This document shows, one piece after another, positions 26,710 through 41,303 of a stretch of 53,863 nucleotides of DNA. The position numbers and the translations under genes were made by a program. Source of the stretch: Acidimicrobiia bacterium. Lineage in GTDB: Bacteria; Actinomycetota; Acidimicrobiia; Spongiisociales; UBA5794. How positions within the stretch are numbered: the stretch's first letter is position 1; the number at the start of each line of letters is the position of its first letter. The DNA lies in the NCBI GenBank assembly GCA_030064765.1, contig JASJEG010000004.1, forward strand, positions 1-53,863, given 5' to 3'. The notes under the pieces are model-generated. The model worked only from the letters and a program-made list of their open reading frames with translations, did no database searches and was not told where the DNA came from.

Positions 26710-26737
26710 CTTACCTCTGCCGCTTCTCTGCCGACAG
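26710..26737 (+). promoter_or_regulatory. Sigma-28-type promoter for flhB operon
   Basis: CTTA-N16-GCCGACAG. Confidence 0.65.
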
Positions 26738-26803
26738 TGACCCAGGCCGAAGGAACGGCTGCATCGCCAATGGAATGGCTTGGATTGACGACCGGAGTCG
26801 GAA

Positions 26804-27850
26804 TTGAGCCGTTCCCAGGATCGGACAGAGAAGCCAACTGAGCGACGGAAGCGAGAAGCGCGTCGCGAAGGTCGTGTTGCCAAGTCCCAAGAGGTAGGCG
26901 TTGCCCTCTCCATGGTCATGCTCGTGTTGGCACTGCGCTTCCTGGCTCCCGCAGCAGCCGCCCAGATCGCAGATCGAGCGCGAGCCATCTTCGCCATTTC
27001 CGGAAGAGCCACCTTCAGCCCCGAAATCGGCTCTCACGTCATCGGGATGATCATGGTCGGGCTCGTGCCGGTTCTGCTCGCTGCGACCGTCTTCGGAGTT
27101 GCGGGTGGCGTTGGCCAGGTCGGCTTGACGCTGGCCCCGAAAGCCGCCAAGCCCAAGCTCTCCAACCTTTCGCTGAAGAAGGGCCTCAATCGATTCAAGC
27201 CGTCGGTGTTCATGTGGGAGCTGGTCAAGGCTGTGGGCAAGGTGGGTTTGCTCGTTGCCTTCATCTGGGGCCCGCTCATGGCCTGGATGGATCGTCTCGG
27301 CGAGCCGCTTGGCATCGTCGATGCGATCAGCTTCACCGGTGACCAGGTCTGGCAGATCGTGTTGCGGGCTGCGGGTTTGGCGGTCGTGATTGCCGGTTCT
27401 GACTATGCGGTCAATCGAATCCGGCACAACAAAGAGATGAAGATGACCAAGCAAGAAATGCGCGAGGAGTTCAAGAGCTCCGAGGGTGACCCGATGGTCC
27501 GCGCCGCTCGCCGGCAGCGTGCTCGGGAGATGAGCCGCAACCGCATGATCTTCGACGTTGCGCACGCCGACGTAGTAGTCACCAACCCGACCCGACTCGC
27601 GATTGCCCTCAAGTACGACCCGGATGAGGTCGCCCCCCGGATTGTCGCTAAGGGAGCAGGCAAGATCGCCGCCAAGATTCGCCGTGAGGCTCGCCGCAAC
27701 GGGGTGCCTCTCATCGAGAACAAGCCGCTGGCCCGCACGCTCTACCGCAAAGTCAAGGTCGGCGGGTTTGTGCCGGCCAACCTGTTCGAGGCCGTTGCCG
27801 CCGTGCTGGCCGTCGCCTACCGCCGTCGTCCACGTAGGAGAGTCGCATGA
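26804..27850 (+). CDS. flhB: Flagellar export protein FlhB
   Basis: RTEKPT.RR.REAR.EG.V.KS, KMTKQE...E.K.SEGDP, TNPT, LARTLY. Confidence 0.95.
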   Translation: MSRSQDRTEKPTERRKREARREGRVAKSQEVGVALSMVMLVLALRFLAPAAAAQIADRARAIFAISGRATFSPEIGSHVIGMIMVGLVPVLLAATVFGVAGGVGQVGLTLAPKAAKPKLSNLSLKKGLNRFKPSVFMWELVKAVGKVGLLVAFIWGPLMAWMDRLGEPLGIVDAISFTGDQVWQIVLRAAGLAVVIAGSDYAVNRIRHNKEMKMTKQEMREEFKSSEGDPMVRAARRQRAREMSRNRMIFDVAHADVVVTNPTRLAIALKYDPDEVAPRIVAKGAGKIAAKIRREARRNGVPLIENKPLARTLYRKVKVGGFVPANLFEAVAAVLAVAYRRRPRRRVA

Positions 27851-29892
27851 GGCGCTCGTCGATAGTCGTCCCGCTTTCGCTCATTGGAGTGATCATGATG
27901 ATGATCATTCCGATCTCGGCGACTGTTCTCGACACGATGCTGGCTGCGAACATCACGATCGCCGTGCTCGTGCTGCTCGGAGTCATCCTGCTCTCCGACA
28001 GTCTCGACTTCTCGGTCTTTCCGTCGCTGCTGCTCGTCACCACGCTGGCCCGACTGGCTCTCAACGTGTCCTCCACCCGGCTGATCCTGCTCGACGGCAA
28101 CGCCGGCAAAGTCATTGATACCTTCGGCAACTTCGTCATCGGCAGTTCGGTCATAGTTGGTCTCGTCGTATTCCTGATCCTGATCGTGATCCAGTTCGTC
28201 GTCATCACCAACGGTGCCACCAGGGTGGCCGAGGTCGCTGCCCGGTTCACATTGGACGCCATGCCCGGCAAGCAGATGGCGATCGATGCCGATCTCGGTG
28301 CGGGGCTGATCGACGAGGCGCAGGCCAAGGAGCAGCGGAAGCGCATCGCCACCGAGGCAGACTTCTACGGGGCGATGGACGGTGCCGCCAAGTTCGTCAA
28401 GGGCGATGCCATCGCCAGCATCATCATCGTTGTGATCAACCTATTCGGCGGCCTCGCCGTCGGCATGGGCTCCCTCGGCATGAACTTCTCCGAGGCCGTC
28501 AACACGTTCTCCCTACTGTCGGTCGGCGACGGTCTGGTCAGCCAGATCCCGGCACTGCTGATCTCCATCTCCACCGGTCTGCTGGTCACCAGGGTCGGAG
28601 CCGAAGAGGACATCGGCGCAGAGATCGGGTCCCAGCTGCTCGGCAACGCCCGCGCCCTTCGCTTCGGCGGGCTCGCCGTGGCCGGTCTCGGCATGCTCCC
28701 GGGGCTTCCCAAGATCCCGTTCCTCACTCTGGCGGCAATTCTGTTCTTCGCCGGCAGCCGCCGGGCGGCGCTCGACGATCGTGATCGAGAGAAGCCGGAG
28801 GAGGCTCCTGAGGTCACGCTCGATCCTGATGACCCCGAAGCCCTCATGGGCGAGATGCGGGTCGAACCTCTCGAGCTCAGGCTCTCCTACGACATCCTCG
28901 ATCTGATTGATCCGAGCAAGAACGGTGACCTCCTCGACCGGGTCAAGTCATTGCGCAGGCAGATAGCAATGGAACTAGGTGTGGTCATGCCGTTCGTCCG
29001 AACGCGTGACGACGTTTCGCTCCCTCCGGCCACGTACAGCATCGTGCTGCGCGGCACCGAGGTGGGGCGGGGCACCGCTCCACAGGATCAGATCCTGGCC
29101 CTGCCGCTGGGCGACGGCGAAGAATTGCGCGCCCTGGGCGGGACCGAGACCATTGAGCCGGTCTTTGGCCTCAAGGCCTTCTGGGTTCCCGAGTCGGCCC
29201 GTGCCTCGGCAGCCGCCACCGGAGCCACTGCAGTGGATCGGTCGTCGGTCATCGTCACCCACATCGCCGAGGTCGTTCGCGCCAATGCCGCTTCTCTGCT
29301 CAGCCGCCAGGATGTCCAGTCACTCGTCGACGGACTGCGGTACGAGGAGCCCATCCTCGCCAACGAGGTTTCCACCGAGGCGCTGCCACTCGGCCTGCTT
29401 CACAGCGTCCTCCGCAAACTGCTCGAGGACAGGGTTTCGATCCGGGACCTGGGTCCCATCGTCGAGTCCGTTTCCAACCGGGCTGCCGAAACCCGCTCCG
29501 CCGAACAGCTGGCCACCGCCGCCCGGGTTGCCGTGGGAAGGTCGATTGTCGCCCGGATTTCCCCAGACGGCCGGCTCATGGTGATGACGCTGGCCCCGAG
29601 CCTGGAAGCCGCCATGCACGAATCGCTGCGCGAGGTGGATGGAACAACCTTCATCGTCATGGATCCCGCCAAGCTCGATGTTGTCCGCATCGACGTCGAT
29701 CACCTGGCGGGCGAAGCCGCCCGCGCCCAGCGCCCCGCCGCCCTCGTCGTCGGTCAGGCCCTGCGCGGCCCGCTGACCAAGACCCTCCGCGGTATGGGGC
29801 TCGATGTACCCGTACTTGCCTATCCGGAATTGCCCCCCGATGTTGAACTCGAACCAATTGGAGTCATAGGAGCCGCCCTTGCCAATGCTTGA
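27847..29892 (+). CDS. flhA: Flagellar export protein FlhA
   Basis: RVAEVAARFTLDAMPGKQMAIDADL, FYGAMDGAAKFVKGDAIA. Confidence 0.97.
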   Translation: MRRSSIVVPLSLIGVIMMMIIPISATVLDTMLAANITIAVLVLLGVILLSDSLDFSVFPSLLLVTTLARLALNVSSTRLILLDGNAGKVIDTFGNFVIGSSVIVGLVVFLILIVIQFVVITNGATRVAEVAARFTLDAMPGKQMAIDADLGAGLIDEAQAKEQRKRIATEADFYGAMDGAAKFVKGDAIASIIIVVINLFGGLAVGMGSLGMNFSEAVNTFSLLSVGDGLVSQIPALLISISTGLLVTRVGAEEDIGAEIGSQLLGNARALRFGGLAVAGLGMLPGLPKIPFLTLAAILFFAGSRRAALDDRDREKPEEAPEVTLDPDDPEALMGEMRVEPLELRLSYDILDLIDPSKNGDLLDRVKSLRRQIAMELGVVMPFVRTRDDVSLPPATYSIVLRGTEVGRGTAPQDQILALPLGDGEELRALGGTETIEPVFGLKAFWVPESARASAAATGATAVDRSSVIVTHIAEVVRANAASLLSRQDVQSLVDGLRYEEPILANEVSTEALPLGLLHSVLRKLLEDRVSIRDLGPIVESVSNRAAETRSAEQLATAARVAVGRSIVARISPDGRLMVMTLAPSLEAAMHESLREVDGTTFIVMDPAKLDVVRIDVDHLAGEAARAQRPAALVVGQALRGPLTKTLRGMGLDVPVLAYPELPPDVELEPIGVIGAALANA

Positions 29893-31174
29893 CACCACCC
29901 CCAATCAATTGACAGTAGAAGCCGAGACCGTTGAGGACGCCCTAGCGGAGATCTCGATGGAGCTCGGCGAGAACGCAGAGATCATGCGTGCCCAGAAGGT
30001 GCATCGCGGTGGTGTCGGTGGCTTCTTCGCCAAGGAGATGGTCCAACTGACCGCTCGCCGCCGCCGCGGCGAGCCGGTACCTCTTCATCGCCCGATCGAG
30101 GGTGGAGGTATTGCCGACGTGCTGGAGCGGATGGCGCAGGATGCCGACGCCGAAGACTCCGACTTCCGCACCGTGCTCACACGGGAGCTGGCAGCCGGGC
30201 CGGATGACACCAGTGGCGACGGCTTTGCAGCAGCAGTCGGCTGGGAAGAGACGGTTGATCCTGCCGATGAGCCCATGTCGGTCGAGGGCCCGGCGAACAG
30301 CGACGCAACTGCCGCCGTCGATTCCGGCGAACAGACCCTGGAGCCGGTCGTCGTAGGACCGGCGCTCCGCAGCAGTGATGCGGTGGCCGTAGTCGACGCC
30401 GGTAGCCCCGCTGCTCCTCCTCTTGATGTGGTCGAGCCCGAGTGTGGCGATGTCGCAACTGCCGAGCCGATCCCGATCGAAGCGATCAGTGCGGCAGCTG
30501 AGCTGAATTGGGAACAGGTCGAACCGGCGGCCACCGTTGATCAGACCGCCTCGGCCGAATCGGCCGCTGCAGAGGAAGTGGGCGATGAGCCCGAACCCAA
30601 AGAGGTAGTTGACGCACCTCCCGGCATGGGCCCGGTGGATTGGAGCACAACTGCACTGCTCCGCCTCGGCCTGCCCGGGCCGGTGATCAGCGCCGTCACC
30701 GGGCTCGATGAGAGCAACGATCTGAGCTGGATCGAAAGAATCGCCGCAACGGTTGCTCCGCATTGCGGTCCACTTCCGAGCGGCGATGTGATCGTTGTCG
30801 GTCCCCATGCCGAGCGGCTCGCCGAGCCACTCGGTCTCCCTCTGGTGAGGGCCGGGGACATGGCTCCTTACGACGGTTCCTTCTGCGCCATGGTCGAGGA
30901 CAGTGCCGAAGACAGGAAGTGGCTCGAATTCGTCAGGGGTGGTCGCGGAATCCACCTGGTCGTTGGCGATGAGCCGTGGCAGGACCTTCTCATCGACGAG
31001 CCCGTTGCGGTCTCCTGGGTGGGCGAGAGCGCAGTCTCGGCTGCTCTCTACCTCGCATTCACCTTGGGAGCGACTCTCGGGTTCGGCACGGTAGACGGAT
31101 TTGTCTCCACGATGGTGCGAGCTCAGCCGACTGATATTGCGCTGGCGATTCGCCGGATTGTGGGGCGGCAATGA
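29885..31174 (+). CDS. FlhF-like protein with degenerate GTPase domain
   Basis: Follows flhA; N-terminus EAETVEDALAEISMELGENAEIMRAQKVHRGGVGGFF resembles FlhF; acidic linker; VIVVGP without GxGKT. Confidence 0.6.
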   Translation: MLDTTPNQLTVEAETVEDALAEISMELGENAEIMRAQKVHRGGVGGFFAKEMVQLTARRRRGEPVPLHRPIEGGGIADVLERMAQDADAEDSDFRTVLTRELAAGPDDTSGDGFAAAVGWEETVDPADEPMSVEGPANSDATAAVDSGEQTLEPVVVGPALRSSDAVAVVDAGSPAAPPLDVVEPECGDVATAEPIPIEAISAAAELNWEQVEPAATVDQTASAESAAAEEVGDEPEPKEVVDAPPGMGPVDWSTTALLRLGLPGPVISAVTGLDESNDLSWIERIAATVAPHCGPLPSGDVIVVGPHAERLAEPLGLPLVRAGDMAPYDGSFCAMVEDSAEDRKWLEFVRGGRGIHLVVGDEPWQDLLIDEPVAVSWVGESAVSAALYLAFTLGATLGFGTVDGFVSTMVRAQPTDIALAIRRIVGRQ

Positions 31175-31416
31175 GCGGTAATCCCATCAACCGGCTGGCC
31201 GCGCTTCTCGGGTTGGTGGCCGTCGGCCTCATTGCATACGGCGTTGTGACCGGTTCCCTCGAGTTGGTCGAGGCAGCGAAACGGGCCGGACTGACCCTAT
31301 TTGCGGTGATTGTGGTCCGCGCGATCGGCAGGGTCGGTTTGTCCGCACTCGCCGGCTCCATGGAGCGAGCCTCCATCGCAGAGCAGCCGCGGCGCCGGGC
31401 AACTGATCAGGTCTAA
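31171..31416 (+). CDS. Small two-TM membrane protein
   Basis: ATGA overlap with previous gene; two hydrophobic segments; C-terminal RRRATD. Confidence 0.7.
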   Translation: MSGNPINRLAALLGLVAVGLIAYGVVTGSLELVEAAKRAGLTLFAVIVVRAIGRVGLSALAGSMERASIAEQPRRRATDQV

Positions 31417-31419
31417 CCA

Positions 31420-31634
31420 TTCGACAGGTGAGGTGCCGGGGGTCATGGTGCTCGACAACGGCGGTGAGATGCGAGTCTCCAATCGCCCCGGCTCCTCGAT
31501 CCGCTGCCTGGAACAGCCTGCATCCTCGCTCGCAGTGACAGGAGCCACCGCGGGGCAGCAGTCTGTACGGCCAACGGGTCCTGTCGGGAAGTACCTCCTT
31601 GTACCTCGCAGCCCGCATCCTTGCGGACGGACAA
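31420..31634 (-). ncRNA. Candidate CsrA-sequestering small RNA (flagellin-leader mimic)
   Basis: Follows a sigma-28-type promoter; AAGGAT and AAGGAG hexaloop hairpins; TACAAGGAGGTACTT identical to fliC leader; seven GGA; no start codon after the SD-like site; ends approximate. Confidence 0.6.
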
Positions 31635-31640
31635 TCACAC

Positions 31641-31668
31641 CTGTCGACCAGTTCCGGGAGGGTCTAAG
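31641..31668 (-). promoter_or_regulatory. Sigma-28-type promoter for candidate sRNA
   Basis: CTTA-N16-GTCGACAG, divergent from promoter at 31694. Confidence 0.55.
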
Positions 31669-31693
31669 CATCCGGGACCGGACTCGCTCACCG

Positions 31694-31721
31694 CTTATTC
31701 GCTACACATCCCTGCCGACAG
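31694..31721 (+). promoter_or_regulatory. Sigma-28-type promoter for FlgN-like gene
   Basis: CTTA-N16-GCCGACAG. Confidence 0.65.
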
Positions 31722-31758
31722 ATAGGAAAGCCGCAGCCAACCGCGTGCGGAGCAAATC

Positions 31759-32283
31759 ATGACAACCTCAACGAAGCTTCTCATCAATGAGCGGTACATC
31801 GCCCTCGTGGGCGTGCTCAATCGCGAGTTGGTGATCCTGGAACGGTTGGTCTTCAAGCTCACCCAGGCCGAAATGCTGACCCGGGCCGGCGAATCCCGGT
31901 TCCTGGCGAACATCTTCGACGAGATCGACTCAGTCCGTGATGATCTTGGCGCGCTCGAGGTAGCCCGCTCCATGTTGGTCGGTGATGTGACTGCGGCGCT
32001 TGGGCTGGCCAACGACACGCTCACTCTCAGCCAGCTGATTGCGTACGCTCCCGACCTGGCGGTTGAACCGCTCGAAGGCCTGCTGCGGCGAATGGCCGAG
32101 GCCATGGAAGAGGTTGCGGAGCTCAAGGAGATGGGCTCCCGGGCCGTCATGGAGCGCCTCGATCAGATCGAAAGGGCGATGGACCGGGTAGAGCCGGGTG
32201 TGTTCGGACAGGCGGGCTACGACCAGGGTGGGTTTGTCACCGCACCGGTGACGACGTCGTCTCGCTTCGACCTCAACGTCTGA
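31759..32283 (+). CDS. FlgN-like flagellar chaperone (second paralog)
   Basis: LNRELVILERLVFKL....L.....RFL aligns with LWYERRLLEYLLFKL...RRFV of 35288-35788; C-terminal GYDQGG. Confidence 0.7.
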   Translation: MTTSTKLLINERYIALVGVLNRELVILERLVFKLTQAEMLTRAGESRFLANIFDEIDSVRDDLGALEVARSMLVGDVTAALGLANDTLTLSQLIAYAPDLAVEPLEGLLRRMAEAMEEVAELKEMGSRAVMERLDQIERAMDRVEPGVFGQAGYDQGGFVTAPVTTSSRFDLNV

Positions 32284-32290
32284 TCGCCGA

Positions 32291-32524
32291 TTAGCCGGGA
32301 TCCTTGGGTGCGTCCTGAACGGCTTCGCGGATCTTCTCGACATTGGCGATTGCCGACAGGTTCTCTTGCCGGACCTGCTCGTAGATTTCCTCGCGGTAGA
32401 CCTCGACGCTGCGCGGAGCGTCGATCCCGATCCGCACCTGTCCACCCTTTATCTCGATAACGGTGATGACGATGTCTTCACCGACGACAATGGATTCTCC
32501 GGGCCTTCTGGTGAGTACAAGCAT
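32291..32524 (-). CDS. csrA: Carbon storage regulator CsrA
   Basis: [15 protein letters not shown]...[19 protein letters not shown] plus C-terminal helical extension typical of FliW-binding CsrA. Confidence 0.97.
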
Positions 32525-32958
32525 CAGGCCCCCGGCAATTCGATCGGCGTACGGGTTGAGTAGTCGGTGCCGGTGAGCACGAGCTGACGGCCCTTGCGGG
32601 TCTTGACGTTGACGACAAACGGGCCGAGCAGGTTCAGGAATATCTCCCGGGTTTCGCTGTCGATCGTGACCGGAACAAACAAGATCGCATCATCGGCCGT
32701 TTCCAGCTCCAACTCCGCTTGCTCCACATCGGACAGGACCGGCGCATAGTCGGGGAAGAACAGCCAGGGCACGCACACGATCATCGAGATATCGATGTTG
32801 TCGAGGCTCTGCAACTGCTGGAAGGCCCCGTCCTCCCGGAGTTCGACGATCACGAATCGTTCGAGATCGGGAAGGCCGGGAAGGCCGTCCGGGAAGTGGA
32901 GTGCCTTCTCGAAGAGGTCGCTCGCCTCGGCGGCGTCGGCGCTGGATTGCTCGGTCAT
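32524..32958 (-). CDS. fliW: Flagellar assembly factor FliW
   Basis: [29 protein letters not shown]...GRQLVL; adjacent to csrA. Confidence 0.95.
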
Positions 32959-33920: not shown

Positions 33921-35288
33921 CTACCTACCCACAAGCCCGGTTCGGTTGATGAGCGTGTCGAGGCTCTCATCGACGGCGGTCATGACGCGAGCTGCGGCTT
34001 CGTATGCCCGCTGGTATGTGATGAGGTTGACCATCTCCTCATCGATCGAAACCCCGTGTGCCTGCATGCGTGCGCTCTCGGCGGCTGAGGTGAGGGCGGC
34101 CTGGCTGCGGGCACCGGAGATCGCGGAGGCGGTCATTTCGCCAACGAACGAGACGATGTTGCGCATCGCATCGTCGACGGTGAGGGTCCCGCCGTCTGCG
34201 ACCAGGCTGTCACGCAATGCCGAGAGGGCTTCGGCGTTCATCCCGTCGAACTCGGCCACGGGCGGCCCCGAGCCGGCAGCGGCGATCTCGGAATGGTGGC
34301 TCACTGCAACCACGAGCGAGGCCGCTTCGGCGCCGACCGTGTAGGACAGGAGGTCGCCTCCGGCTGAACCATCGGGGGCATAGCCGGTGGCGTGCTGGGC
34401 ATTGAGGGCATCGGCCAGTTCCCGGGCGAAGGTATTGAGAGCGGCCTCGAAGCCGGGCAGTTCGGTCTGCAGGTAACTCTGGAATCCGGAGAGCTCACCG
34501 CCGACGGTGACCGTTGCCCCCGAGGAGTGAGAAATCGCAAAGGTCGCCGGGTCGTAGGAGAGCGGGCTGACCATCGTGTCGGAAACCAGCGACAGGCCAT
34601 CGAGGCTGACCCGGGCTGCTCCGTTGTCCATGATCGTGACGGTTACGCCCGCGATGTTGGACAGGTCGTCCATTATCAGGTCCCGCTGATCCAGCAGATC
34701 GTTCGGCTCGCCGGGCAGCGAAGTGGCATCGAGGATCTGCCGATTGAGCTGAGCGATCTCGTGCAGCATGGCGTTGGTACGGTCGACGTACGCCTCGAGC
34801 GAGTTCGATGCACTCTGGCGTTCGATGTCCCACTTCTCGGCGACGCCGCGCACGTTGGTGGCCAGCTGGCCGAGCGTGGTGATCACGTGCTGCCGGGCCG
34901 AGGCGTTGGGAGGATCGAGTGTCAGTTCGTCAAAAGCGGTCCACAGGTTGGCCAAGCTCGAGGTGACCCCGGTGTCGGGCTCGCCCATCACCGACTCGGT
35001 CTTCGCCAGCAGGTCGGCAAGAACGTCGAGACGGCCCTGGGCGCTGGCGGAACGACGCACCTGGGTATCGAGACCATCGATCCGCACCCTGGAAATGTTG
35101 GCGATGTCGACCCCCTGGCCGACGGTGCCGAAGCGATGGTGGTAGGGGAGGCGGGTAGCGAGGTCGACCCGCTGCCGGCTGTATCCGGGGGTCGAGGCAT
35201 TGGCGACGTTGTGGGATGAGGTATTGATGCCGGCCTGAGCAGCGGTCAGCCCGCTGAATGCCGTGTAGAGGGAGATGAAGTCGCTCAT
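33921..35288 (-). CDS. flgK: Hook-associated protein 1 FlgK
   Basis: SHNVANASTPGYSRQRV, NDLLDQRD, GVSIDEEMVNLITYQRAYEAAARV. Confidence 0.96.
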   Translation of the reverse strand: MSDFISLYTAFSGLTAAQAGINTSSHNVANASTPGYSRQRVDLATRLPYHHRFGTVGQGVDIANISRVRIDGLDTQVRRSASAQGRLDVLADLLAKTESVMGEPDTGVTSSLANLWTAFDELTLDPPNASARQHVITTLGQLATNVRGVAEKWDIERQSASNSLEAYVDRTNAMLHEIAQLNRQILDATSLPGEPNDLLDQRDLIMDDLSNIAGVTVTIMDNGAARVSLDGLSLVSDTMVSPLSYDPATFAISHSSGATVTVGGELSGFQSYLQTELPGFEAALNTFARELADALNAQHATGYAPDGSAGGDLLSYTVGAEAASLVVAVSHHSEIAAAGSGPPVAEFDGMNAEALSALRDSLVADGGTLTVDDAMRNIVSFVGEMTASAISGARSQAALTSAAESARMQAHGVSIDEEMVNLITYQRAYEAAARVMTAVDESLDTLINRTGLVGR

Positions 35289-35788
35289 CAGATGATCCGA
35301 TTCACTCGTAGCGGCTGATCGGGTGTTCGGGTCGCCCGTCCGGCGGCGTCATAGATGTCGCCTCCGGCAAACCCGAGTGTCCCTTGGATACCGTCGAGGG
35401 CAACGGTTGCCAGGCGGCGGTTCTCCTTGGTGAGCACCTCGATCTCGTTGACCAGGCCCATGAATACCGCCTGGTGGTCTTCGAATGTGGGTCGCAGATG
35501 GTCCGGGGCGTTGTCGACGAGGAATCGCAGCCCGACCGACGCGGGGGGAACATTCCATTCCTGCGCTACGGCGGCGACGACTTCGCTTCGTTGATCCTCG
35601 GCTCTGCGGATCTCGGCCATGACTGCGTCGACCTCAGCGATGGCCGGGCCGACAAAGCGGCGATCATCGGCAATCAGCACGAGATTGGCCGACACGAGCT
35701 TGAACAGCAGGTACTCGAGCAGTCTGCGTTCGTACCAGAGCGTGTCGGCTAGCTGGCTCATAGGTGTAGATCCGGTTGCGGTAACCAT
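35288..35788 (-). CDS. flgN: Flagellar chaperone FlgN
   Basis: LADTLWYERRLLEYLLFKL actinobacterial FlgN pattern; directly upstream of flgK. Confidence 0.85.
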   Translation of the reverse strand: MVTATGSTPMSQLADTLWYERRLLEYLLFKLVSANLVLIADDRRFVGPAIAEVDAVMAEIRRAEDQRSEVVAAVAQEWNVPPASVGLRFLVDNAPDHLRPTFEDHQAVFMGLVNEIEVLTKENRRLATVALDGIQGTLGFAGGDIYDAAGRATRTPDQPLRVNRII

Positions 35789-35796
35789 TGGGTGTT

Positions 35797-35823
35797 CAGT
35801 CGGCCCGAGCACCGCTCGATTAA
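35797..35823 (-). promoter_or_regulatory. Sigma-28-type promoter, (near-)leaderless, for flgN-flgK-flgL
   Basis: TTAA-N15-GCCGACTG-N8-ATG. Confidence 0.75.
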
Positions 35824-35897
35824 GGCCCAGAACCGACATAAGTGAGCTCGGATAAATCGTGGCGCAAGCTGCCGGGGAGGGCGGGATTCGGATATGC

Positions 35898-35978: not shown

Positions 35979-36599
35979 ATGAACTCAGGTGATGCCATCA
36001 AGGGAGAAAACGCCGAGGCGCGTATCGCTCATCTCGAGGCCCGCCTCGCCGAGGCGGAAGCCGACAACGGCGTACTCCGCCTCCAGCTCGACATGCTCAC
36101 CTCGACGGATATCGTCACCGGGCTCCCCAATAGCAATGGCATCGCCGCCCAGCTGCAGAAGGCGGCCGCTCGCTACTCGCGTTCCGGAGAGGCGTTCGCC
36201 CTGATGCACATCGGCTTTCCGGCCTTCGCCCGCATCGCAGAGGAACGAGGGCGGCACGCGCTCGAAGATGGCATGCGCCACGCCGGGTCCCTCGTCGGAG
36301 CCGCGGTGCGGCAACTAGACACGGTAGGTCGAATCGACGAAGAGGGCCTGGTCTGTGTCATGCCGATGATGTCTGATGACGGGGTAACGCCCGTGGTCAA
36401 CCGGGTCGAGCGGGTTCTCGAGTCAACTCCGATGCTGTTTGAGGACGATCAGGAGATCTACCTCGTCCCTGAGTTCACCATTGTGATCTGCAGCACTGCA
36501 GCCCGGGTTGATCCGCCGACCATCATGAACCGGCTTCTCGATGCCCGCGCCCAGGCGAAGCCCGGTGCCCCCGTGGTTCGTCACGCCAGCTCTTCCTAG
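35979..36599 (+). CDS. Coiled-coil plus degenerate GGDEF domain protein
   Basis: DIVTGLPN; RQLD I-site then TVGRI-DEEGL in place of GGDEF. Confidence 0.8.
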   Translation: MNSGDAIKGENAEARIAHLEARLAEAEADNGVLRLQLDMLTSTDIVTGLPNSNGIAAQLQKAAARYSRSGEAFALMHIGFPAFARIAEERGRHALEDGMRHAGSLVGAAVRQLDTVGRIDEEGLVCVMPMMSDDGVTPVVNRVERVLESTPMLFEDDQEIYLVPEFTIVICSTAARVDPPTIMNRLLDARAQAKPGAPVVRHASSS

Positions 36600-39437: not shown

Positions 39438-40283
39438 CTATCCGTGCAGTATCAAGGCCAGATCGGGGTCGTCGTCGGCCGCGTCGAGCCGGCTTCGCCA
39501 GTTGCTGTCTGCCGAGAGCTGCGCCACATAGGCGGCACGAGCCCGTTTGCCGGCAGCGTCGTCGCTGACATCGGGGGCGCCTTCGTATAGCGTCCCGAAC
39601 CATGCCCGCAGCGACGTGAGCGCCTCCGACCGAATCTGCGAAACCCTGGCCTGGGTAACGCCGAGGTCCTTGGCGATGTCCTGGAGCATTTCGCCGTTGA
39701 AGTAGTACCGCTCAATGACCTCGGCGTGGGTGGCGGGTAGACCGACGACTGCGGTCCGCAGTGTGCCGAGCATCTCGCGCTGCTCGAGAGCAGCTTCCGG
39801 TTGAACGGAGGTGTCCTGATCAACGATCGTGTCACGTAGCGACACGCTGTCGTCGGGACGCTGGTGATCCAGGTACAGAAGCATGGAGGCAGCCGACTGA
39901 GCCTGGGTCTTGTCGAGTTCTTCTACTGTCACGCCAAGTGCCTTGGCGAGAGTCTCCCGATCCGGCTCTCGCCCCGTCGAATCGCGCAGATCCGAGCTCG
40001 TCTCTTCCATCTCCCGATAGCGCCGCCGCACTGAGCGAGATGCCCAGTCCCGGGTGCGAGTCGAGTCGATGATGGCGCCACGAATCCGAATTGCTGCATA
40101 GCGTTCGAACGGGATACCGGAATCGGGGTTGAATCGTCTGGCCGCTTCCACCAATCCGAGCGCGCCGGCATTCCAGAGCTCTTCTCTGTCTACGTGGCGG
40201 GGATAGCGAGCGGAGACTTTGGCGACGGTGCGCCCTACCAGGTCGAGATGATCACGAACCAATTGGTTCGTCTCATGCTCCAT
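39438..40283 (-). CDS. fliA: FliA/WhiG family sigma factor (sigma-28)
   Basis: GLVEAARRFNP..G..F..YA.IRIRGAIID..R..DW..RSVR; LGVTQARVSQI; divergent from flagellin. Confidence 0.93.
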   Translation of the reverse strand: MEHETNQLVRDHLDLVGRTVAKVSARYPRHVDREELWNAGALGLVEAARRFNPDSGIPFERYAAIRIRGAIIDSTRTRDWASRSVRRRYREMEETSSDLRDSTGREPDRETLAKALGVTVEELDKTQAQSAASMLLYLDHQRPDDSVSLRDTIVDQDTSVQPEAALEQREMLGTLRTAVVGLPATHAEVIERYYFNGEMLQDIAKDLGVTQARVSQIRSEALTSLRAWFGTLYEGAPDVSDDAAGKRARAAYVAQLSADSNWRSRLDAADDDPDLALILHG

Positions 40284-40350
40284 GTCTCTCTTACCCATTT
40301 GTACTGGCCTCCATGGATTGCCCCACCCGGACAATCCGTGCATTAGGGAG

Positions 40351-40378
40351 AGATCGGGATCTGGAGAACTAGCCTTGA
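40351..40378 (-). promoter_or_regulatory. Possible autoregulatory sigma-28-type promoter for fliA
   Basis: TCAA-N16-CCCGATCT. Confidence 0.5.
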
Positions 40379-40410
40379 TGACCATTCTTCAAATAGTCAC
40401 TCTCTGTGGC

Positions 40411-40438
40411 CTTATGCCGGCCGCCCGACTGCCGATAG
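40411..40438 (+). promoter_or_regulatory. Sigma-28-type promoter for flagellin
   Basis: CTTA-N16-GCCGATAG. Confidence 0.8.
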
Positions 40439-40456
40439 TGGTGGGTGGAAGCGTTG

Positions 40457-40505
40457 ACATGGATGTTGACGTGGAGCGAACGCACCGTCCTACAAGGAGG
40501 TACTT
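40457..40505 (+). promoter_or_regulatory. Two CsrA-binding sites in the flagellin leader
   Basis: ACATGGATGT (40457-40466) and TACAAGGAGGTA (40491-40502) overlapping the SD. Confidence 0.75.
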
Positions 40506-40508
40506 ACA

Positions 40509-41303
40509 GTGCGTATCAACCAGAACATTGCGGCATTCAACTCGTACCGCAATCTTTCCGCGACCAATATCCAGTTGGGTAAGTCGCTCGAGAAACTGTC
40601 TTCGGGTTTCCGGATCAATCGTGCCGCCGATGACGCTGCCGGTTTGGCAAAGTCTGAGTCGCTGCGGGCCGAGATCAACGGGTCGCGGCAGGCGATTCGT
40701 AACGCCCAAGACGGTGTAAGTCTTGTTCAAACTGCTGAGGGTGCCCTCAATGAGGTGCATGCGATTCTGCAGCGGATGCGTGAGCTGGCTGTTGATGCCG
40801 CTAACACCGCAACCACTACAGGTGCCGCTCAGCAGGCCGAGGTGACCCAGCTGCTCGCTGAGATCAACGCCATCGGTACCAACACCAAGTTCGCCGGACA
40901 GAGCGTATTCACCGCCAGTGCCCGGACATTCCATGTCGGCGCCGGTGCGGATCAGGTCCTCTCGGTGACCGTGGGCACGCTGACCACCGGCGGGCTGACC
41001 ATCGACTCTGTGAACCTGCAGACCGGTGCCAACGCAGCGATCGGCGCAGTTGACGGCGCCATCGGCGCAGTCTCGACTCTGCGTTCGACTTTGGGTGCTA
41101 CTCAGAATCGTCTGGAGCACACTGTGGCGAATCTGAGTGTTGCTGTGGAGAATCTGTCGGCTTCTGAGTCCCGGGTTCGTGACACGGATATGGCTGCCGA
41201 GATGGTGTCGTTCACCAGGCATCAGATCATGGTGCAGGCGGGTACGGCGATGTTGGCGCAGGCCAACCAGGTGCCGGCCTCCGTCCTCAACCTGCTCGCC
41301 TAG
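40509..41303 (+). CDS. fliC: Flagellin (264 aa, minimal)
   Basis: MRINQNIAA...EKLSSGFRINRAADDAAGL; RSTLGATQNRLEH; SRVRDTDMAAEM; AMLAQAN. Confidence 0.97.
   Translation: MRINQNIAAFNSYRNLSATNIQLGKSLEKLSSGFRINRAADDAAGLAKSESLRAEINGSRQAIRNAQDGVSLVQTAEGALNEVHAILQRMRELAVDAANTATTTGAAQQAEVTQLLAEINAIGTNTKFAGQSVFTASARTFHVGAGADQVLSVTVGTLTTGGLTIDSVNLQTGANAAIGAVDGAIGAVSTLRSTLGATQNRLEHTVANLSVAVENLSASESRVRDTDMAAEMVSFTRHQIMVQAGTAMLAQANQVPASVLNLLA

Follow-up and report, generated by a model that had tools for sequence, protein, structure and literature searches.

A conserved, predicted non-coding RNA in the flagellar cluster of an Acidimicrobiia genus, a candidate CsrA decoy derived from an orphaned mRNA leader

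The window analysed here, a stretch of 53,863 bp corresponding to contig JASJEG010000004.1 (our C210) of an Acidimicrobiia genome bin (3.16 Mb, 242 contigs, 78% complete), carries a flagellar gene cluster in which a gap of 342 bp (31417–31758) separates a gene for an 81-amino-acid (aa) membrane protein from a gene of the FlgN family. Comparative evidence supports the presence in this gap of a minus-strand non-coding RNA of about 205 nucleotides (nt), from 31634 to about 31428, hereafter the element, which presents from 5′ to 3′ a sigma-28-type promoter, two CANGGANG hexaloop hairpins (H1 and H2) and a covarying 3′ stem. Its conservation, non-coding status, strand, structure and origin can all be read from genome comparisons, and these point to the leader of a lost HD-GYP gene. 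We give an even chance to the proposal that this orphaned leader now acts as a decoy titrating CsrA. The initial annotation of this DNA had read a promoter, two hairpins, five further GGAs and a 3′ stem on the minus strand of the gap, and each of these motifs is present where it was placed (Table 1).

Judged from their sequence, H1 and H2 both fit the definition of a high-affinity CsrA site, a CANGGANG hexaloop closed by a C-G pair on a stem; the published consensus is a GGA in a hexaloop of this type (PMC4894983, cited here and below, like the review PMC7652899, from excerpts). The H1 loop reads CA.GGA.G in all 22 distinct variants collected, with variable bases flanking the loop motif, and H2 is invariant in nine out of nine genomes of the genus (GAGGUACAAGGAGGUA, with a hexaloop that reads CAAGGAGG), so that the conservation of the GGA loops in relatives, on which the initial annotation had staked its case, holds for both hairpins. 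Among 17 full-length folds, the H2 hexaloop forms every time and is always closed by C-G in the minimum-energy structure, and the H1 hexaloop forms in 12, an extra A-U pair closing it in the other five. The GGAs of the two hairpins are unpaired with a probability of 0.57–1.0 in these folds (0.75–1.0 for H1 in all 17). Hairpins with an A.GGA. hexaloop are common in the genome (465), tandem pairs of them number just three, and the element is the strongest of these pairs. The folding check proposed with the initial annotation also gave a positive result, RNAfold predicting −101.3 kcal/mol for 31420–31640 (minus strand) with z = −2.54.

Among the genomes searched, the element is confined to one genus. 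A DNA search of 60 relatives retrieved the gap sequence from eight genomes, all of the same genus as the window's, two other genomes in that set (G049 and G038) giving chance-level matches only. R1, a covariance model built on the 5′ module, was run over 132 genomes of the family and gave matches with E ≤ 4e-17 solely for the window's own genome and for 8 of the 13 other genus members, i.e., in 9 of 14 genus genomes. A csrA gene was found in seven of these 13 members and in the window's genome, and the element is present in every one of them, which links it to csrA; in the eighth carrier, G003, the contig is cut inside the FlgN-like gene. No csrA match was obtained either from the five genus genomes that lack the element. 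These are 66–95% complete, so that absence is not shown for them; one, G010, does carry flagellin genes. Metagenome contigs, searched with a pattern in which H2 and the 3′ strand of helix P1 were obligatory and H1 was unconstrained, added 16 loci, bringing the total to 25 copies with 22 distinct 5′ modules.

The alignment of the nine genomic copies contains as conserved blocks the promoter, P1, H1 (CCCGC-A.GGA.-GCGGG), H2 and GGACCCGUUG. Past these 5′ blocks the genomes share no alignable sequence over a central stretch, whose length varies by as much as about 200 nt, until a conserved 3′ module begins; the predicted RNA ranges from 205 to 365 nt across the genus. Mean pairwise identity is 0.82 for the transcribed 5′ module, compared with 0.71 for the coding sequence of the adjacent FlgN-like gene and, over 28 genome pairs, 0.40 for the fourfold sites of that gene (G004, where the gene is frameshifted, being omitted). 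Since the fourfold sites are saturated and the 5′ module is not, the module is under purifying selection and is no decaying relic. In G004 (L006, C8) the FlgN-like gene is split over three frames, by a real frameshift or an assembly error.

That the gap holds no convincing gene, as the initial annotation had it, agrees with our inspection of open reading frames (ORFs) and Pfam searches, which found no convincing ORF filling 31417–31758. Judged by comparison across genomes, the element is non-coding, with no frame kept on either strand. There is no conserved start codon after the former Shine-Dalgarno sequence in the nine genus genomes; one conserved TTG, 18–19 nt downstream of it, opens mutually unrelated ORFs of 1–76 aa. 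The blocks of the 3′ module are spaced by 26, 27, 28 or 29 nt and the 5′ module contains 1-nt indels. As to a coding signal, for which the initial annotation had asked, the comparison revealed neither a conserved start codon nor a conserved frame. Three candidate ORFs were rejected: the plus-strand ORF 31310–31762, which 1-nt indels between genomes throw out of frame, and the minus-strand ORFs 31229–31618 and 31297–31671, which overlap the conserved membrane-protein gene on the opposite strand and are not conserved. It is very unlikely that the element is instead the leader of a small peptide, encoded by a short ORF that a (C/U)UG at the ancestral start position would open in one subclade. In G011 and G005 a CTG or TTG does follow the Shine-Dalgarno sequence by 5–6 nt and opens ORFs of seven codons, and similar TTG codons occur in four metagenome variants. 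Such a codon occupies this position, however, in only four of nine genus genomes (TTG in G005; CTG in G011, G003 and G007) and is missing from the other five, and the predicted peptides vary from 7 to 72 aa and have differing sequences.

The strand of the RNA is indicated by its 3′ module, P3, which RNAalifold resolves into an outer stem, a middle helix of three pairs, all three of them covarying, and an inner hairpin CCGCC-GUU-GGYGG. P3 positions are paired in 92.6% of cases, vs 30–54% when the partners are slid, and a covariance model of this module (R2) recovers it in all 22 loci searched, with 37–86 bits (three reverse-strand echoes of 20–28 bits being excluded from the counts). Over 21 distinct rows, the pairs comprise 319 Watson-Crick, 34 G-U, 8 A-C and 14 other combinations. 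The excess of G-U over A-C indicates an RNA on the strand of the element; the G-U pairs of the H2 stem are likewise compatible with the minus strand only. G011 and G005, which have other genes downstream, retain P3 as well, and this makes it part of the element and not of the neighbouring operon. From the structural models, P3 probably forms the 3′ end of the RNA or else a structure that protects it.

Two further helices were recognised. P1, which encloses H1 and H2, is a 6-bp GGGUCC/GGACCC helix in most relatives, with 92.6% of cells paired. The second, P2, is a probable long-range helix, with moderate support from modelling, in which about 19 nt following P1 would pair with about 21 nt preceding the 3′ stem and close the variable domain. 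The duplex energy of cognate P2 strands averages −10.0 kcal/mol, vs −8.3 kcal/mol for swapped partners, a result equalled by 15 of 5000 permutations. In about 6 of 22 variants single mismatches interrupt the inner CCGYUG/CARCGG segment, and the enclosed domain is between 0 and about 200 nt longer in relatives.

These structural data bear on the possibility that conservation acts on the DNA only, the gap being a control region of the divergent FlgN-like promoter (e.g., a regulator site) or a recent relic without RNA function. The FlgN-like promoter does stand back to back with that of the element, 26 nt apart, and is conserved in the genus (minus-strand reading CTGTCGGC). Nevertheless, conservation runs about 240 nt past this promoter and is accompanied by RNA-type covariation and by the one-strand G-U excess of the 3′ module, the loop flanks vary while the GGAs and the stems stay, and a neutral relic would have decayed given the saturation of the fourfold sites, all of which renders this alternative quite improbable.

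The promoter of the element is kept as GCT[TA]AG-N16-G[TC]CGACAGG in all nine genus genomes. The textbook sigma-28 consensus is TAAA-N15-GCCGATAA. The pattern CTWA-N16-GYCGAYAR, which was composed after three of its four window sites were known, has four matches in the window (before flhB, the FlgN-like gene, fliC and the element) vs 0.03 expected, and a version of the motif with a spacing of 15–17 nt has 15 matches genome-wide. Searches with the NCBIfam model FliA_WhiG found one sigma gene above the cut-off in this genome and a second, FliA/WhiG-like gene divergent from fliC (39438–40385, minus strand; match at 39603–40262) with 187.1 bits vs a cut-off of 189.6. The motif common to late flagellar genes and the FliA-family sigma factor of the genome thus allow the promoter to be classed, from sequence, as a putative sigma-28 promoter. 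A scan for promoters and terminators found no sigma-70 promoter and no T-tract terminator after the 3′ stem; the sole terminator-like site, at 31745–31732 (minus strand), is situated upstream of the element and does not exceed chance level.

Regarding its origin, the comparisons identify the element as the orphaned promoter and 5′ leader of a gene of the flagellar regulon, here called X, whose coding part was lost from this site in this genus. X encodes a protein of about 500 aa with a receiver-like N-terminus and an HD-GYP-type domain (Pfam HD_5, 95–98 bits; HD). The order fliW-csrA, FlgN-like gene, X is found in all ten loci of other genera that reach far enough, with the small membrane-protein gene and/or the 431-aa ORF beyond X in four of the ten, and in the genus of the window the element occupies the exact slot of X. 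An unfiltered R1 search around csrA in eleven genomes of other genera gave weak matches (16.6–25 bits) in seven, all located 0.6–1 kb beyond csrA and directly upstream of X. These seven leaders have a promoter of the same class and a ACAAGGAGGUA hairpin (AAGGAGG Shine-Dalgarno) followed after 5–6 nt by ATG or GTG. A first hairpin with a GGA loop is present in five of the seven, the two g16 loci lacking it, and the H1 stem shows compensatory substitutions in the leaders of other genera. The ORF behind the leader is 497–508 aa long in six of the seven loci and interrupted near its start in G015 (L024), after 62 codons, by a real frameshift or an assembly error.

In the model alignment, GUG GCA GGA UCC at the start of X falls opposite C(C/U)G A.A GGA CCC in the element, which means that the first few codons survive as the 3′ strand of P1 (a remnant of codons 3–4) and that the start codon has mutated. 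Searches of the genus elements for further remnants, by tblastn and blastn with X proteins and X 3′ ends, gave noise only. The sole full-length homologue of X in the genus lies away from this site, in the window's genome at C143:1230–2702 (34% identity); in other genus members the distant homologue lies on the same contig as the element, 20–40 kb away. X and this distant genus copy are reciprocal best matches. The copy in the window's genome (L031) encodes 490 aa; both there and in G005 it carries a CTTA-N16-GCCGACTG motif of its own, together with a Shine-Dalgarno sequence that includes a GGA, CACGGAAGGUG. Elsewhere in the genus, the copy comes directly after a fliN-like or che-like gene.

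The initial annotation had favoured a different source, a duplicated flagellin 5′ untranslated region turned into a CsrB-like multi-site sponge, a scenario that now seems highly improbable. What speaks for it is a promoter of the same class and the 15-mer TACAAGGAGGTACTT (31603–31589), which is indeed identical to 40491–40505 before the GTG of fliC and occurs twice only in the 3.16-Mb assembly. This identity reflects a Shine-Dalgarno/CsrA-site context common to several sigma-28 leaders. The element does not align with the fliC leader outside the 15-mer, and R1 finds nothing on that leader beyond a shared block of 12 nt (8.2 bits). In 13 flagellin leaders of genus genomes the first hairpin is invariant and different, GUUGAC-AUGGAU-GUUGAC. 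With no coding sequence behind it and no alignment beyond the 15-mer, the element does not belong among the flagellin leaders. The synteny in the ten loci of other genera, the R1 matches upstream of X and the distinct hairpin of the flagellin leaders together argue that the element is the leader of an HD-GYP gene and not a copy of a flagellin leader.

From these data we infer transcription, CsrA binding and titration of CsrA as follows. The orphan leader would have kept an ancestral property, the binding of one CsrA dimer to two hexaloops about 22 nt apart. Once sigma-28 is active, the RNA would be made alongside the flagellin mRNAs and would bind CsrA, leaving less free CsrA to repress fliC and other leaders. 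The decoy would work in parallel with FliW while flagellin is made, and selection would now maintain the leader solely for CsrA binding. The products of csrA and fliW, which as annotated earlier lie close by, are its presumed protein partners; CsrA of this genome is canonical, residues 1–55 aligning with solved CsrA/RsmE structures. The fliC leader, laid out like the element with a promoter of this class, a GGA hairpin and then the Shine-Dalgarno sequence, is presumably, from its sequence, a competing CsrA target. Flagellated members of the genus have 3–4 flagellin genes each, with leaders that are 85–91% identical and show the two-site arrangement described for hag and flaA.

Several observations weigh against a decoy function or reduce the weight of the evidence for it. 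The 5′ module varies too little within the genus to show covariation (0 pairs changed on both sides), and the invariance of H2 and of the P1 3′ strand in the 16 metagenome loci was built in by the search pattern. Across genera, 11 of 16 pairs of the module, including five of the six P1 pairs, are changed on both sides (a level reached by 0 of 500 shuffles), with 94.6% pairing vs 36–44% when slid, in an alignment that was itself fitted to the model. Covariation, which the initial annotation had proposed to test, is seen for P3 and, subject to this fitted alignment, for the 5′ module across genera, and is absent from the 5′ module within the genus. The remaining conserved GGAs are mostly unpaired with a probability of 0–0.5 in the 17 folds, i.e., largely paired, and one of them may owe its conservation to P2 rather than to CsrA. 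The total GGA count per element is not above chance (P of shuffles reaching the observed count 0.03–0.51 in nine genomes, against dinucleotide shuffles), so that the "five more GGAs" do not exceed expectation, and total GGA density, 2.3–4.3 per 100 nt, is not above that of shuffles in most genomes. The pooled count of 77 is equalled by 1 of 1000 shuffles, a figure that treats related genomes as independent and on which we do not rely. Classical sponges have a higher GGA density than the element. With just two robustly exposed GGA sites predicted, the models point to a decoy for one dimer, not to a CsrB-like sponge, and at one CsrA dimer per RNA, titration would be effective only with an abundant RNA. 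Of the earlier proposal, a minus-strand, sigma-28-type non-coding RNA with CsrA-type loops is thus upheld by comparison, and its multi-site character is not.

The lack of a U-tract terminator, by which the transcript could read on into the convergent operon, also tells against a free decoy and would suit a different function: an antisense or interference transcript that starts at the sigma-28 promoter, reads through the 3′ stem into the operon of the membrane-protein gene, the 431-aa ORF and flhA, and damps early flagellar genes late in assembly, CsrA tuning its termination or stability. In most genomes about 15–45 nt indeed separate the end of the 3′ stem from the convergent gene's stop codon. 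We consider this function unlikely, as the 3′ module is no less conserved in G011 and G005, whose downstream genes differ and share the strand of the element, as a discrete RNA is suggested by the conservation of the long-range helix and by the stability of the 3′ stem, and as two invariant GGA hexaloops would not be needed. A trans-acting base-pairing small RNA, with a seed in a conserved single-stranded stretch and with CsrA as a chaperone or regulator that is not titrated, would fit the structured and conserved 5′ and 3′ domains, and CsrA-assisted pairing of a small RNA with an mRNA in B. subtilis figures in the reference list of PMC7652899. Yet the element has no conserved unpaired stretch apart from its GGA loops (no target search was made), and the region between its modules varies in length and sequence; we find this option distinctly improbable.

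Among known systems, a CsrA-titrating mRNA leader is the closest parallel to the proposed decoy. According to the excerpts of PMC7652899 and PMC4894983, RNA antagonists of CsrA are characterised in Gammaproteobacteria and FliW-encoding bacteria use the protein, the flaA mRNA of C. jejuni being the one mixed case. The latter species encodes FliW and is described as being without canonical Csr small RNAs, and the flaA leader, with two adjacent GGA hexaloops, titrates CsrA alongside FliW (Dugar et al. 2016, PMC4894983). The element shares with this leader a FliW-encoding host and the two adjacent hexaloops, titration having been demonstrated experimentally for flaA and being proposed here for the element. 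In contrast to flaA, where flagellin is still encoded and the host belongs to the Campylobacterota, the element has neither coding sequence nor start codon, derives from an HD-GYP gene and occurs in Actinobacteria (Acidimicrobiia). The B. subtilis hag leader carries one CsrA site in a hairpin and a second that overlies the Shine-Dalgarno sequence (Yakhnin 2007, Mukherjee 2011, summarised in PMC7652899); the element resembles it in its sigma-28-type promoter, in the upstream GGA hairpin combined with a GGA over the former Shine-Dalgarno sequence and in its flgK-flgL-fliW-csrA neighbourhood. However, hag is a translational operator of a gene still present, whereas behind the element nothing is left to translate. 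In Salmonella, the 5′ untranslated region of fimAICDHF is mentioned as a CsrA titrator (PMC4894983), an mRNA leader antagonising CsrA in trans as proposed for the element; unlike the element, it remains joined to its operon and works alongside CsrB/C in a gammaproteobacterium.

With CsrB/CsrC and RsmX/Y/Z the element has in common its non-coding nature, an own promoter, GGAs in hairpin loops and the proposed sequestration of CsrA. These RNAs offer many sites and depend on BarA/UvrY (GacS/GacA), whereas the element has two exposed sites and a sigma-28-type promoter. The excerpted review states that the presence of fliW is anti-correlated with the BarA/UvrY (GacS/GacA) system (PMC7652899). The Rfam search suggested in the initial annotation matched no family, CsrB, CsrC, RsmX, RsmY and RsmZ (PrrB_RsmZ) included: cmscan of 30900–32400 at E ≤ 10 returned nothing but a chance snoRNA match elsewhere, and the whole window gave 0 matches at the gathering score. 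By analogy, the element would functionally resemble the flaA and fim leader titrators more closely than the Csr/Rsm small RNAs, while differing in phylum, promoter class, number of sites and the absence of a gene behind the leader.

In a further reading, to which we give slightly less than even odds, the element would be the first RNA antagonist of CsrA in a FliW-bearing lineage of Gram-positive type (Actinobacteria), left behind when a CsrA-repressed mRNA lost its coding sequence, and FliW- and RNA-based control of CsrA would coexist in one flagellar circuit. Titles and abstract openings revealed no published CsrA-binding small RNA from Actinobacteria or Acidimicrobiia. If this reading holds, a Csr-type decoy RNA would have been caught in the act of arising from a target leader, an evolutionary route from mRNA leader to small RNA whose ancestral state (leader and gene) and derived state (leader alone) are both observable in sister genera, and RNA-based control of CsrA would extend to another phylum and be tied to the timing of sigma-28.

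Table 1. Features of the element, its promoter class and the neighbouring genes in the window
Feature	Coordinates	Strand	Description or basis
Element promoter	31641–31668	−	Sigma-28 (FliA)-type, CTTA (31668–31665)-N16-GTCGACAG (31648–31641); read from sequence
Hairpin H1	31611–31628	−	GUCCGC/GCGGGC stem (6 bp), AAGGAU hexaloop (CANGGANG-type CsrA site); sequence and comparison
Hairpin H2	31588–31607	−	GAGGUAC/GUACUUC stem (7 bp), AAGGAG hexaloop; former Shine-Dalgarno, second CsrA site; sequence and comparison
Helix P1	31576–31632	−	GUCC (31632–31629) with GGAC (31581–78); encloses H1 and H2; comparison
Helix P2 (probable)	31501–31577	−	CCGUUGGCCGUACAGACU (31577–~31559) with GCAGGCUGUUCCAGGCAGCGG (31521–31501); duplex energies
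3′ module P3	31431–31496	−	Outer stem GCCGGGG (31492–31486)/CCCCGGC (31441–31435); RNAalifold
Further GGAs	31581–79, 31525–23, 31502–00, 31495–93, 31480–78	−	Read from sequence
FlgN-family gene promoter	31694–31721	+	Sigma-28-type, CTTA-N16-GCCGACAG; divergent from element promoter
FlgN-family gene	31759–32283	+	Pfam FlgN, 40 bits
csrA	32291–32524	−	Pfam CsrA, 93.9 bits
fliW	32524–32958	−	Pfam FliW, 113.3 bits
81-aa membrane-protein gene	31171–31416	+	Overlaps stop codon of 431-aa ORF
431-aa ORF	29879–31174	+	Follows flhA
flhB promoter	26710–26737	+	Shared motif class; motif scan
fliC promoter	40411–40438	+	Shared motif class; motif scan
fliC leader	40411–40511	+	CTTA-N16-GCCGATAG, GUUGAC-AUGGAU-GUUGAC hairpin, CCUACAAGGAGGUACUUACA-GUG; read from sequence
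fliC	40509–41303	+	Flagellin Pfam matches; GTG start at 40509

In the neighbourhood of the element, csrA and fliW converge on the FlgN-family gene, with flgL and flgK beyond them. The cluster contains two FlgN-family genes, the one convergent with csrA (Table 1) and another at 35288–35839 (minus strand), the usual site upstream of flgK; a stand-alone GGDEF gene (35979–36599, plus strand) adjoins this flgN-flgK operon. The 431-aa ORF occupies the usual position of flhF and keeps 41–51% identity across other genera of the family; the label "flhF" for it is unsupported, as Pfam gave no match. The flhB gene (26804–27850, Pfam Bac_export_2) has a leader (26710–26803, plus strand) with tandem GGA hexaloops, CCG-AAGGAA-CGG and CCA-AUGGAA-UGG, which is among the three tandem pairs of the genome, and with three more GGAs, one of them at the Shine-Dalgarno sequence; this suggests that CsrA may control the export-gate gene flhB too. 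A paralogous leader of the flhB type lies on contig C12, near 5092–5065 (minus strand).

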